DNA of 64,000 bases from Eledone cirrhosa (lineage: Eukaryota). Shown one piece after another: positions 52,102-60,620 of this stretch. Both the position numbers and the translations under genes were made by a program. Where the stretch lies: assembly GCA_964016885.1 (NCBI GenBank), contig OZ024751.1:22444001-22508000 (forward strand), in the 5' to 3' direction. The first letter of the stretch is position 1; every line of letters begins with the position of its first letter. The notes under the pieces were generated by a model that was not told the DNA's origin, ran no database searches, and was given only the letters and a program-made list of their open reading frames with translations.

Positions 52102-55011
52102 ACGTTATCGAATAAGTTAAGTTAACGTCTGGGATTTTATTCAACAGTTCGATATGTATGGAACTACTCAAGAAGGGCCTTTTGGTTAAGGTGCAGAATT
52201 TACGTTTGATATCTCACTATTTTTACTTCAGTGAAGAAGGAATTGAAGCCATACATACAACTACAGGAAGTGAGGTCACACATGTAGTATATATTGATTA
52301 GCAAAGGCACAGGAAGTCGTGTCATAGACACATCTACAGGAAGTGAGGTCACACACATGGCGTGTGTTGGTTAGCAAAGACACAGGAAGTCATGTCATAG
52401 ATAGATCTAGAGGAAGTGAGGTCACACACATAACGTGTGTTGGTATACAAAGACACCGGAAGTGAGCTCACACACATGGCGTGTATTGGTTAGCAAGGAC
52501 TCAGGAAGTGATGTCACAGACACTTTTGTCTCTTCAGATGTCAACTAACTCTTCTTTCAGTAATTTTTATGAGACGGTGACTGTGTCATGGTTGTACGTC
52601 TATAAGTGTGTGTGTGTGTGTGTGTGTGTGTGTGTGTGTGTGTGTGTGTGTGTGAGAGAGTGTGTGTGTGAGTGTATGTGTGTGTGCGCGTGCGTGTGTA
52701 TCTAAGTGTGAGTTTGTTGGTGTGTTAGAATGTGTGTCTCAGTGTCTCTTTCTCTCTGTCGGTCTAAATATGTGTATGCAAGTGGGTGTATGTGTATGTA
52801 TCTGTGTGTGTGTGCCTAAGTCTGTGTGTATGTATGTGTGTCTAAGTCTGTGTGTGTAGGTGTGTTAGAATGTGTGGTTTTGTATGTGTGTTTGTATGTG
52901 TCTAAGTCTGTGTGTTTTTGAGTGTGTATCTACTGTTGTCCCAGGATTTTTGCTGGGCTGATGATTGGTTGATGGTTGGGTTAATAAGCGCGCACACGTA
53001 TAAGTATGAGTGTTTGTATATATGTGTATATATATATGTGTGTATCTGCATGTGTTTTTGTGTGTGATATGTGTGTATGTTATGTAATTGTTTGTTTGTG
53101 TGTGTGTATGTGTGTGTGTGTGTGTGTGTGTCTGTATTTATGTGTGTGTGATTATCTGCATTTCTCGCAGTTAATTTGTGTAGTAGATGGTATTGCGTTG
53201 ATGTAAGTCTGTGTGTGTGAGTATTTATCTTCTACCAGACAATTATTGCGGGTGGGAGCTGCTGGGTACATATGTGTAAGTGTGTGTGTGTTGTGTGTGT
53301 GTGTATGTGCGTGTATAAATATGTGTGTGAGTGTGTAAGTATGTGTGTGTGTAAGGGTAATTGTGTGAATGTGTTATGTGTGTGTAATTATGTGTGATAT
53401 ATCTAAATACGTGTGAGTGTGTGTGAGTGTGTGTGTTTTACGCTAGTTGCAGCAGGTTAGGTTTGGATTAGTGAGAATGCAAAGCTGTGGGTGAGTAATA
53501 TATTGCATACATGTGTCAGTGAGTGTGTATGTGTATGTATGTGTATGTGTGTGTATGTGTGTGCATGTGTGCATGTATATTTAATGTAAGAAACAAAACA
53601 GAGCTGGTTTTCACATTCACATTCCACTTACTTGTATAGTATATACATATATATATATATATATATATATATATATATATATATATATAAATATATATAT
53701 ATATATAACTATATATATAATATATTATATATATATATAATATATATATATATATATATATATGTGTGTGTGTGTGTGTGTGTGTGCTTATGTGTGTGCA
53801 AATATATATAGATATATAAACACACAAATATATAATTGAGTGTGTGTGTGTTTGTGTGCACGCGTCACTATATTCCTCACAGGTGAGTTGAAAGCGATAT
53901 AGTTTAATACACACACACACCACGCACACATCTCTCTCTCTCTCTCTCTCTCTCTCTCTCTCTCTCTCTCTCTCTCTCTCTCTCTCTATATATATATATA
54001 TATATATATATATATATATATATATATATATATATATATATATATACACACACATACATATATGTATATATACCTATACAAATATATATATACCTATATA
54101 TATATATATATATATATATATATACCTATATATATATATATATATACCTATCTATATATCTATCATATATATATATATATATATATGTGTGTGTGTATAT
54201 ATACAGTTGATACGTATATGATGTTAAATCGTGTGGAATTTGTAGCTATAACTACGTTGACAGTTGAGACCATGTAAACTATGATAACATATCAAAAAGT
54301 TAATAATTCCACTGTCTTCAACATAACGCCATTCCTATTGATGTTGTTGTTGTTAGCTCAAGACACTTGGCAGACATTTTTGTTGTTGTTGGCTCAAGTC
54401 ACCAGCCAGAATGTTTGTGTTGTTGCTGTTGTTGTTGTTGTTGTTGTTGTTGTCACTTGCCAACAAGTACAACTCCGAGATTCTTACCTTTTGTTCACCC
54501 TTAAAATAACATAAAAGTACATGTATATATCACACACACACACAGACACACAGGCACATAGACACACACACACACACGCACACACTCACACACACACACA
54601 AAAGCACATACTGATATGGACAAATATGCATACACATGCACATACACATTCAGAATCAAACGTACACGTATAGACACTAACACAAGGTGATACAAGAAAA
54701 CACACGTACATACATAAATACATCAACATATACAAACATCACAGACATACACTAAACTAACCGCCATTGTCATAATAGACAGGCTTGTTTGACATTTCCT
54801 GTCTTCCATTGACATATTTTATTAAAGGCATAATTCGTACACACACACAAACTATATATATATATATATATATATTAGAAAGTGAGGTTTTTTTTACAAA
54901 ATGAAAAATAACCGAGGTGTCCTACACGAGTGGAAGTATAAAGAAAAAGGGATGAAATCGAAAATGCAACTGAAGTCTTATTTTTTTTTAAATATATATA
55001 TTTATTTGGTT

Positions 55012-55049
55012 CCTTTACCGGTTTCGCAGTTCTTCTGCTTTTCAAAAGG
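55012..55049 (-). ncRNA. Minimal type I hammerhead motif, U3-A8 variant (family HH-B), inverted copy
   Basis: Reverse complement of 55440-55477. Confidence 0.65.
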
Positions 55050-55439
55050 TGAGTTGAGATGGAGGGTCTGTGGTTTTTCTCACATCTGGTTGGTCTCTAA
55101 ATGTTACTTGTTTTATATGGAAAAACTGGCTCGAAAACCAGGTTTTTCGAGAAGTAATTTGATTGGTTTGTCAATAATTATAATAAATTTCGCGCCTGTT
55201 CGCGTTACAATAGTTCTTCAAATAATAGAGGGGGGGGGGGGGTTTGTCACAGGTTGTTTTTTCATATATGAGTGTTTGAATTTCTTTTTACTTGAAAAAA
55301 TGAGGCTCACGAAGGCTTTTTTTTTGGTTGGTTATAAATGAAATTTGGCTGTCACGTGAACTTGTTTTCCATATAAAACAAGTAACATTTAGAGACCAAC
55401 CAGATGTGAGAAAAACCACAGACCCTCCATCTCAACTCA

Positions 55440-55477
55440 CCTTTTGAAAAGCAGAAGAACTGCGAAACCGGTAAAGG
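55440..55477 (+). ncRNA. Minimal type I hammerhead motif, U3-A8 variant (family HH-B)
   Basis: cctt-TTGAAAA-gcag aagaa ctgc-GAA-accggt-A-aagg: stem I cctt/aagg, G-C-closed stem II, palindromic stem III, GUA triplet. Confidence 0.65.
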
Positions 55478-55573
55478 AACCAAATAAATATATATATTTA
55501 AAAAAAAATAAGACTTCAGTTGCATTTTCGATTTCATCCCTTTTTCTTTATATATATATATATATATATATAT

Positions 55574-55759
55574 AAGAGTATGACCCCGACGGCAGAGCTC
55601 AAGCCGTTTCGACGGCAATTTCTGGACTAAAGTAAGAGTTTTTTTAGTCTCAACCTGCCGTCGGGGTCATACTTTCTCCTATTACCCACCCTACTACTCT
55701 AAGTATTGAGTACTCTGGTGGGTTATGGCACATCTGGTTCCTTACCACAACTCCTTCGT
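55574..55759 (+). mobile_element. Family HP hairpin element
   Basis: gtatgaccccgacggcag...ctgccgtcggggtcatac plus conserved body, between (TA)n tracts. Confidence 0.85.
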
Positions 55760-56100
55760 TATATATATATATATATATATATATATATATATATATATAT
55801 ATATATATATATATATATATATATATATGTGTATATATATATATATATATATATATATATATGTATATATATATATATATATATATATATATATATATAT
55901 ATATATATATATATATATATATATATATATATATATATATATATATATATATGTGTATATATATATATATATATATATATATATATATATATGTATATAT
56001 ATATATATATATATATATATATGTATATATATATATATATCCAAAATTAAGATAAATTAAATTAAATTAAATTAAATTAAGGGTGTCATGCCGGATAGAC

Positions 56101-58729: not shown

Positions 58730-58866
58730 ATTATTTAACGATCGTTTCTAGGACATATATGTGTTAGAATTGGCATGCATATTCAAAAGATCTATGTACA
58801 AAATTATACAAACTATCAAAGAGAATATACATACCAACACATATATATGCTGTCTTCAGAAATAAT
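58730..58866 (-). ncRNA. Hammerhead-like motif with extended stem II (family HH-C), inverted copy
   Basis: Reverse complement of 58888-59024. Confidence 0.55.
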
Positions 58867-58887
58867 CTTATTAATATTAATATTAAT

Positions 58888-59024
58888 ATTATTTCTGAAG
58901 ACAGCATATATATGTGTTGGTATGTATATTCTCTTTGATAGTTTGTATAATTTTGTACATAGATCTTTTGAATATGCATGCCAATTCTAACACATATATG
59001 TCCTAGAAACGATCGTTAAATAAT
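58888..59024 (+). ncRNA. Hammerhead-like motif with ~100-nt stem II (family HH-C)
   Basis: attattt-CTGAAGA-[long hairpin: atatatgtgtt/aacacatatat and ggtatgtatattc/gaatatgcatgcc]-GAA-acgatcgt-T-aaataat; the closing pair of stem II is a C.A mismatch. Confidence 0.55.
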
Positions 59025-59530
59025 GAACTTTTTTTGTTTAATATAAGGAACTGTTTCATTGTTTTATTCATTATTTTTTAAATATTTTATATATATATAT
59101 ATATATATATATATATATATATATATATATATATATATATATATATATATACATATATATATAGGGCAGGAGGCCACTGTTTCATGATGTTGCTATAGAA
59201 ACTTGCTACAGTTATTGTAGACTAAGTGAAGAATATTTACACTTGTGGGATTTGGGTTAAACATTTTCCTATATATATATATATATATATATATATATAT
59301 ATATATATATATATATATGTGTGTGTGTGTGTGTGTGTGTGTGTGTGTGTGTGTGTGTGTGTGTGTGTGTGCGTGTGTGTGTGTGTGTGTGTCTAAACAG
59401 ATCTGCTAGAAATGGGAGTTTACCCTACGTGTATATATATTTATATATATATATATATATATATATATATATATGTGTGTGTGTGTGTGTGTGTGTGTGT
59501 ATGTGTGTATGTGTGTGTGTGTGTACATAT

Positions 59531-60404
59531 ACGGTAGGATGTAGGAATTGAGAAATATCTTAGCGTATAGGTCTTGGCCAGATGTGAAATATAGACCCAC
59601 GATACCAGTTGCAGATCTGGGCAAAATACGAAATGTATGTAAAGCCTTCTCTAGTCTTAGGCGAGATGTGAAATATAGACGGCAGAAACCAGGTTACATG
59701 TCTCTGCAGGATATGAAATGTATGTAAAGCCTTCTATAGTCTGAGGCGAGATGTGAAATATAGACGGCAGAAACCAGGTTACATGTCTGTGCAGGATATG
59801 AAATGTATGTAAAGCCTTCTCTAGTCTTAGGCGAGTTGTGAAATATAGACGGCAGAAGCCAGGTTACATGTCTGTGCAGGATATGAAATGAAGGCAGCAT
59901 TTCAAACTAATTATTTTAGTAGCCAATGCTAAGTACATATGATTTATGTATGGATTACGGGTACATGCATTTACATGTAATTTACAAGCTGTACTTAGAG
60001 CACAACAGAATTAAAAAACAAACAAACTAACTAAAACATAAGAAGAGTAGCCTCCCACCCCCAATCCCTTCATAATCATAGGCCCATGACAATACATCAC
60101 CCTATTGCTATCCATTTCCACCTTCGTTCTAGGCTGGTAGTCATTAGAAAACTATACAATGCCGGACTATAAAATGGCTTTATATACATTTTCTTTCCGA
60201 CCCTTTACACAATTTTGTGTTGCAGTTGTTGTAGGATAGATTTCGGGATTGAGTCAGTCGAATCGATTATAGATCATATCTTATACCCCCCTCCCCCTAT
60301 TCTACGGAAATATCGATCATGAACCTTACATGAAAATATTCAAAATATTTCACATCTGGCCTAGGCCTAGACGCTACAAATATTACCCAATTCACATCCT
60401 ACCG
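59531..60404. mobile_element. Non-autonomous TIR element (~60-bp imperfect TIRs) with an internal ~85-bp tandem array (59581-59890)
   Basis: acggtaggatgt...ggccagatgtgaaatat versus atatttcacatctggcc...acatcctaccgt. Confidence 0.7.
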
Positions 60405-60461
60405 TGTCTATATATATATATATATATATATATATATATATATATATATTTATATATATAT

Positions 60462-60620
60462 AAGAAAAGAGACAGGACCCCGACGGCTGAGCTGCGGCCG
60501 TTTCGACAGCTAGATCCGAGTTGGGATCTAGCTGTCGAATCGGCCGGAGCTCAGCCGTCGGGGTCCTGACTCTTTTCCTATTATCGACTCTACAACCCTA
60601 AGTATCGAGTACTCTGGTGC
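60462..60620 (+). mobile_element. Family HP hairpin element, divergent subfamily
   Basis: caggaccccgacggctgagctgcggccgtttcgacagctagatcc gagttg ggatctagctgtcgaatcggccggagctcagccgtcggggtcctg plus body, between (TA)n tracts. Confidence 0.85.

Follow-up and report, generated by a model that had tools for sequence, protein, structure and literature searches.

Within a stretch of 64,000 nucleotides (nt) of Eledone cirrhosa DNA (assembly GCA_964016885.1, contig OZ024751.1, positions 22,444,001 to 22,508,000 of the forward strand; called the window here), the region 54937–60620, as read from its sequence, contains seven short end-repeat pieces (pseudo-long terminal repeats, pLTRs) from four protein-coding families of Penelope-like elements (PLEs), which sit in TA repeats. 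The families are called A to D here. The positions of the 5' ends suggest that the palindromes formed by these pieces are pairs of complementary DNAs (cDNAs) that ran off a capped transcription start, which in family D would lie inside the hammerhead ribozyme. An earlier description of the region, made without database searches (the sequence-only reading), had proposed a hot spot of PLE-derived, TA-targeting, hammerhead-bearing fold-backs. The PLE origin held: when the arms were searched genome-wide and extended, their copies led into open reading frames (ORFs) with a reverse transcriptase (RT) and a GIY-YIG endonuclease, and their 3' ends meet TA. The source assembly is 3.0 Gb, and 3.9% of the sampled bases lie in long (TA)n tracts.

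Element pieces and their hammerhead motifs

Three long inverted duplications were identified, as had been described: arms of 188 nt with no mismatch in family A (54937–55124/55365–55552), 186 nt with three mismatches in B (56596–56781/56795–56980) and 204 nt with three mismatches in C (58673–58876/58878–59081). All six arms contain a type I hammerhead motif that points outward and has a palindromic stem III. The cores are at 55045 (minus strand) and 55444 (plus) in A, 56695 (minus) and 56881 (plus) in B, and 58859 (minus) and 58895 (plus) in C. An ORF scan revealed no long ORF within 54937–60620, in agreement with the earlier view of the region as non-coding.

Positions within elements are given as offsets from the first base of the hammerhead core. 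The long arm of family A (54877–55369, minus strand; −315 to +169, including a 60-nt tail) is 98% identical to a genomic copy with a 693-aa ORF (L124). The 240-nt "spacer" of this first duplication is itself family A sequence; the left copy is simply longer. The short A arm (55365–55549, plus strand; −79 to +105) stops at an internal TA, has a predicted cleavage site 3' of 55473 and is 100% identical to L129, the copy with the 775-aa ORF described below. In family B, the short arm (56596–56786, minus strand) has its 5' end precisely at −91, and the long arm with its tail (56795–57061, plus strand; −86 to +185; predicted cleavage 3' of 56930) is 98.5% identical to L131, a pLTR-ORF-pLTR copy. 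The two C arms are separated by an AT-rich filler of 21 nt (58867–58887). The long one, with a 120-nt tail (58543–58866, minus strand; −7 to +329), is 99% identical to L105, and the short one (58888–59081, plus strand) begins precisely at −7, with predicted cleavage 3' of 59017.

The sequence-only reading listed four hairpins with a half-hammerhead, and three of them are hairpins of family D. Fold-back 1 (55578–55758) is made of an inverted arm at 55578–55643 (+31 to +95) and a direct arm at 55655–55758 (+78 to +179) and holds only the 3' half of the hammerhead. Fold-back 2 (56101–56288) has its inverted arm at 56101–56150 (5' end +46) and its direct arm at 56151–56288 (5' end +45). The fourth listed element (60460–60620) belongs to D2, a sister subfamily of D; its inverted arm (60460–60519) and direct arm (60519–60620) have 5' ends at +48 and +45, and it carries half a hammerhead. 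The remaining one (58245–58357, plus strand; +70 to +179) is a solo 3' fragment that starts downstream of GAAA and is neither a hairpin nor the bearer of a half-hammerhead. Between 54854 and 60660 there are 24 (TA)n tracts of at least 8 units, which adjoin the 3' ends of the elements and are their insertion targets.

The hammerheads differ in core and stems. Family A has a U3-A8 core, a 13-nt stem II and a 6-nt palindromic stem III. The other two have C3-G8 cores and 8-nt palindromic stems III, with a stem II of 31 nt in B and 104 nt in C. Long D and D2 copies contain a whole hammerhead with a U3-A8 core, a 56-nt stem II and a true stem III (eight copies, three of them with damaged cores), which indicates that the half-hammerhead is the family D ribozyme truncated from the 5' side inside stem II. 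In the stem III loop of both D and D2 (L142, L306) a 6-nt palindrome is kept although the stem can close alone, hinting that dimer pairing has been retained.

A relaxed descriptor recovered three of the six arms; in 200 shuffles of the region, it averaged 0.025 and never found more than 1. It missed both C arms and the right B arm because of mismatches at the base of stem II, and these motifs were identified by eye. Rfam returned no hammerhead for the window among the matches listed (150 of 536), and when a single arm each of A and B was given a targeted Rfam scan, the motif was missed in both. The microRNA matches of Rfam in the window were discarded as generic hairpin matches below the gathering score. 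Elsewhere in the window, an older B subfamily is represented by a whole hammerhead at 4811–4948, and two D 3' fragments without a ribozyme lie in tandem at 42742–43017.

The type I motif in the pLTR is kept among copies. In 88 B-type copies, gathered without constraint on core letters, core position 7 is variable (T41, G37, A9, C1), and the other six positions are the same in 84–88 of the 88. Across 44 distinct B-type motifs, 93.3% of the cells are paired and 54 cells are changed on both sides; in pairing and two-sided changes, none of 500 shuffles was as high, and all slid controls were lower. Core and pairing are conserved in this B-type set, a point on which the sequence-only reading had made its proposal depend. 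In a family related to B, stem III is still self-complementary, but with a different palindrome.

Fold prediction for the three whole fold-backs gave a stem I pair probability of 0; for the arms alone it was 0.55 in A and 0.01–0.02 in B and C, so that the test discriminates for A only. The antisense arm would be transcribed first on either strand, and read-through RNA of the fold-backs is for this reason predicted to form a long duplex instead of a ribozyme. In a lineage in which RNA editing is heavy, the palindromes may thereby supply double-stranded RNA.

Protein-coding copies of the four families

Genome searches returned 870 first-look candidates for A, 2141 for B, 1105 for C and 925 for D. 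Family A joins an ORF of 775 aa in L129, in which RVT_1 and GIY-YIG score above the Pfam cut-offs. The protein has the motifs GxKF, DKG and YLDD, a CX4CxxC linker and a GIY-YIG domain with CxxC and two histidines (CCHH, by eye). By GxKF, DKG and the linker, family A appears to be a Neptune-like PLE, of either the Neptune or the Nematis type.

Family B joins a 746-aa ORF in L131 and family C an 801-aa ORF in L102 (675 aa also). Both proteins contain RWR, DKT (position 126 in B, 132 in C), YRDD and a CxCX5C linker. At the N-terminus, RWR stands in place of the RWK of the Hydra clade. GxKF is missing in C; in B there is a GVKF at position 92, the homology of which is doubtful. Family D has 1.4 kb of 3' sequence common to L142, L144 and L145 that reaches broken RT and endonuclease frames, in which the DKT region was not recovered. 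The CxCX5C linker is present in B, C and D, and their endonuclease is without CCHH (by eye). A Pfam scan of the B, C and D proteins gave no match, and their RT and endonuclease were assigned by motifs. The three appear to be Hydra-like PLEs, as judged from these motifs and from a comparison by eye with the alignment in the supplement of PMC8557442. Their proteins are 40–46% identical to one another and 24–29% identical to A; their pLTR DNA is unrelated. These three families are unrelated, as had been claimed, at the level of pLTR DNA but not of protein. The closest named protein relative of B is from Argonauta hians (38% identity). A 642-aa ORF at L144:2567–4492 (plus strand) represents a fifth Hydra-like family, 51% identical to B.

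L131 is organized as pLTR-ORF-pLTR, and L102 likewise with an additional inverted pLTR. In these two copies, the tail of the upstream pLTR passes into the leader at a distance of 49 and 152 nt from the ATG, and the downstream copy ends in (TA)n. The B unit measures 3,882 nt from hammerhead to hammerhead. With A, B and C joined to long RT-endonuclease ORFs and D to a broken one, the suggestion that these are non-autonomous or retrozyme-like families finds no support. Retrozyme arrays were likewise rejected, as there are no head-to-tail monomers with whole hammerheads at the locus and coding masters are present.

Fixed ends and the origin of the palindromes

Each family has two fixed 3' ends, one per arm (the short arm and the tailed arm), and both are followed by TA. 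In B, C and D, TA repeats come directly after the 3' ends in most copies, and the long end of D is followed by exactly (TA)4 in 49 of 64 copies. Genome searches with the C 3' end, the A tail and the A core-to-short-end queries returned no candidates; for family A there is therefore no unbiased sample from the assembly. In L014, L233 and L238, the 3' end of the same short interspersed nuclear element (SINE) is joined to the same family C spot (stem I/core start). These three copies possibly reflect a shared target site or one amplified event.

The 5' ends pile up at one A per family: −42 in A, −91 in B, −7 in C and +45 in D. With a tail-only query for C, 9 of 28 copies have their 5' end between −9 and +2, a 32-fold rate per base at risk; 11 of the remaining ends are further downstream and eight far upstream, with none between −10 and −231 (the window copy and one SINE-joined copy were dropped, and one SINE-interrupted copy was counted as long). 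A 3'-only query for D placed 16 of 29 ends between +38 and +55, with the mode at +45 and a 12-fold rate (window copy dropped). For D2, the ends of 28 of 30 copies lie between +38 and +54, in a search whose query penalises shorter copies and in which nine of the 30 first alignments were spurious TA matches and were realigned. Seven B arms end precisely at −91 with differing upstream letters, and in older B subfamilies three arms stop at, or beside, the homologous base. In family A, 9 of 15 short arms have the 5' end between −43 and −40, and none of the 14 fold-back joints among the matches listed (14 of 117 joints) in public short-read contigs passes −43 on either side. The pieces in the window itself include ends at these bases: −7 in the two C arms, −91 in one arm of B and +45 in arms of D and D2.

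The RNA polymerase II initiator consensus is of the pyrimidine-pyrimidine-A type. The pile-up base lies in the context YYANT in B, C, D and D2, which is found at 2–4% of nearby positions, and in YYANW in A. An extra G is the signature of cap copying. A preceding G was found in 21 of the 50 arms that end exactly at the pile-up base and in 23 of 164 arms that end at neighbouring break points (Fisher p = 5e-5); by family, the counts are 13/22 in D, 3/15 in C, 3/6 in B (controls 6/19), 2/6 in D2 and 0/1 in A.

We consider it probable that the palindromes arise when the enzyme cuts the TA repeat and copies the start of the element RNA onto both cut ends. By analogy with the Poseidon element of Anolis in vitro, the GIY-YIG endonuclease would cut both strands in (TA)n and RT would start at two internal sites just before the ORF. 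This region would be near the 5' end of an ordinary pLTR-ORF-pLTR transcript, and both cDNAs would therefore usually reach only the capped first base, the pile-up site, where an occasional extra G would come from the cap. The two cDNAs would then be joined head to head. The rarer long copies would stem from tandem transcripts, and clusters would build up as new insertions hit the same TA tracts. In family D, a start inside stem II of the hammerhead would explain the half-ribozyme: the leader would lack the 5' half of the core and be uncleavable, and only the downstream pLTR would carry the whole ribozyme.

The pLTR of Drosophila Penelope contains both its promoter and its start site (PMC2377424). 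This precedent, the initiator-like context and the preceding G together lead us to infer that most insertions are run-off cDNAs. The family-specific 5' ends are in effect base-precise predictions of PLE start sites. If they are true, the ends of insertions explain both the regeneration of pLTRs and the head-to-head palindromes, which PMC8557442, PMC3846280 and PMC2377424, in the portions available to us, call open. On the full claim we are evenly divided: that most PLE insertions here are twin run-off cDNAs whose ends map PLE promoters to the base, that the D ribozyme is a positional switch, and that about 2 × 10^5 hammerhead motifs and about 10^5 long palindromes were seeded in this way.

Several observations count against this reading. 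The window A arms end at −79 and −315 instead of −42, and the first D pair at +31 and +78. Both the zones of pile-up and the match to an initiator were selected post hoc. The genome searches scored the best 40 candidates only, so the samples favour young copies, and the query behind the seven B arms contained the junction letters, which biases that sample. A 3'-only B sample was set aside as uninformative: its apparent ends at −32 are due to sequence differences from the reference, and the set was mostly diverged subfamilies. The extra-G signal comes mostly from D, and some of the Gs could derive from the partner arm. No intact D ORF was found among the genomic copies searched. In the B-type covariation analysis, two of five measures failed against shuffles (covarying-pair and pair-type numbers, 291/500 and 499/500), and kinship inflates the remaining ones. 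The start sites and cleavage sites given here are predictions from the sequence.

The main competitor keeps the PLE origin and attributes the fixed 5' ends to RT stalling, or to snap-back of a single cDNA, at the ribozyme structure. The C site coincides exactly with the 5' edge of stem I, the D site is found at the stem II loop next to a short imperfect palindrome, and some D junctions are centred on the stem III loop palindrome, all of which favours such a process; self-priming has in fact been proposed for PLE palindromes (PMC3846280). However, the A (−42) and B (−91) sites are well outside the ribozyme, and neither initiator-like sequence nor an extra G is expected from stalling. Snap-back of one cDNA alone also does not yield two different fixed 3' ends, arms as unequal as those of A (−315/−79) or fillers at the joints. 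We regard this explanation as possible but considerably less likely than copying onto both cut ends up to the RNA start.

Non-autonomous retrozyme-like or MITE-like (miniature inverted-repeat transposable element) families that multiply as ready-made hairpin units are an unlikely source of the short elements. In their favour, short copies greatly exceed long ones (28 of 30 in D2), and a 2026 preprint, in its available part, derives animal retrozymes from pLTRs. The long copies, though, carry the same sequence on into ORFs, and no tandem arrays of whole-hammerhead monomers are present at the locus. Junction letters vary between copies, which argues that each fold-back formed separately. We attach still less weight, indeed very little, to sequencing or assembly fold-back artefacts. 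Public reads do not span the A junction at the locus (depth about 1–3 at 55356–55385), but the arms are unequal and end at fixed element positions with mismatches and fillers, and inverted pairs make up 11 of 27 insertions in random regions. Opposite-strand D joints were found in Illumina raw reads of two runs (94 and 43 reads), and A joints in short-read contigs of a public run.

Density in the genome and related elements

As a control for density, forty 10-kb regions at round coordinates (400 kb) were analysed. They contained 27 insertions of A–D, 11 of them inverted pairs. The locus has seven insertions in 5.7 kb, against 0.38 expected per base (P 2e-7) or 1.25 expected per TA tract (P 3e-4), for a site chosen after the fact and with overdispersed counts (variance/mean 2.7). 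Insertion counts track TA tracts (rho 0.60). One of the forty regions, L207 (C15:25,000,001–25,010,000), has eight insertions from families A, B and D, and six of these fall in its densest 5.7 kb. The locus is thus dense yet not unique. The proposed hot spot holds in a weak sense only, and its uniqueness was rejected, as L207 is equally dense.

Across the same 400 kb, 31 whole type I motifs were counted, which by eye fall into about a dozen types; five shuffles gave 0, 0, 2, 0 and 0. The idea that ribozyme diversity at the locus is unusual finds no support in this comparison. Extrapolation gives about 230,000 type I motifs genome-wide (bootstrap 135,000–337,000). With stem II from 12 to 116 nt and both core types, these approximately 2 × 10^5 motifs amount to a large set of unannotated ribozymes. 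About ten further type I families were seen at L180, L184, L187, L190, L200, L202, L203, L206, L207, L210, L211, L213 and L217; they include two more U3-A8 types and a relative of B whose stem III palindrome is GC-rich.

All four families belong to known kinds, of which they are new members, and published PLE biology accounts for the locus, which is nothing unusual in this genome. TA targeting, inverted 5' copies and tails are already reported for PLEs (Craig et al. 2021, PMC8557442). Its supplement also lists Hydra-1_Obim of Octopus bimaculoides, a Hydra-clade PLE with a hammerhead, a further reason why unusual ribozyme diversity at the locus is not supported. Families B, C and D resemble the Hydra clade of that paper in a single ORF with RT and C-terminal GIY-YIG, in the CxCX5C linker, and in (TA)n insertion, a type I hammerhead in the pLTR, an inverted 5' copy and a one-sided tail; B and C also have DKT in common with it. 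They differ in several respects. The peptides with the RWR motif of B and C do not occur in the available supplement. The hammerheads in its File S2 are all C3-G8 with a short stem II, in contrast to the U3-A8 core and 56-nt stem II of D and the 104-nt stem II of C. The tails are 75–120 nt here and 30–40 nt there, and the B unit of 3.9 kb exceeds the general size of below 3 kb, which is a tendency and not a strict criterion. Family A resembles Neptune/Nematis-type PLEs in GxKF, DKG, the CX4CxxC linker, YLDD, the GIY-YIG domain with CxxC and two histidines and (TA)n insertion; it differs by its U3-A8 core.

Palindromic stem III, the U3-A8 variant and opposite-strand motif pairs 100–700 bp apart were described for minimal PLE hammerheads (Cervera and de la Pena 2014, PMC4209133). 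Stem II is far longer in C and D, and the available text mentions neither fixed 5' ends nor octopus. In Anolis Poseidon (Frangieh et al. 2024, PMC11167929), the tail is accounted for by two internal RT starts where pLTR and ORF meet; cutting and extension take place on both DNA strands, and the template is uncleaved RNA. The two fixed 3' ends per family found here fit these two starts and the two-strand cutting and extension. The 3' ends were mapped in that study; an initiator-like 5' pile-up or a ribozyme-internal start is not mentioned in the part available. With non-LTR retrozymes (Cervera and de la Pena 2020, PMC7229834), the pieces share being short, non-coding and high in copy number with a type I hammerhead. 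Retrozymes, however, are head-to-tail arrays of whole monomers, and here we find solo or head-to-head pLTR pieces of coding elements.

For other genomes, 126,247 hammerhead motifs are given for axolotl (PMC7229834) and 235 Rfam hammerhead matches for giant squid (PMC6962438). For Octopus vulgaris, 31 Penelope-like families are listed as recently active, and hammerheads are not mentioned in the available text (PMC13282606). In the literature that we searched, neither fixed 5' ends of PLEs nor a ribozyme-internal start had been reported, and no octopus hammerhead counts were found.

Further repeats lie among and beside the PLE pieces. A TA-flanked element at 59530–60405 has diverged terminal inverted repeats of about 65 nt and includes an 85-nt unit repeated 3.5 times in tandem; it resembles a MITE or a non-autonomous DNA transposon. 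The high-copy repeat at 57515–57705 is SINE-like, with a motif resembling a tRNA B box, and occurs many times in L143. A fourth palindrome (58016–58159) has arms of about 50 nt around a central (TA)n; no hammerhead was seen in it, and related sequence is found near 57915–57940. The short AT-rich piece at 56041–56100, which extends from a TA tract to the second D hairpin, is possibly the end of another family, and related sequence flanks L088. Two tandem arrays, with units of 73 nt (52238–52522) and 112 nt (5543–6291), are also present in the window.

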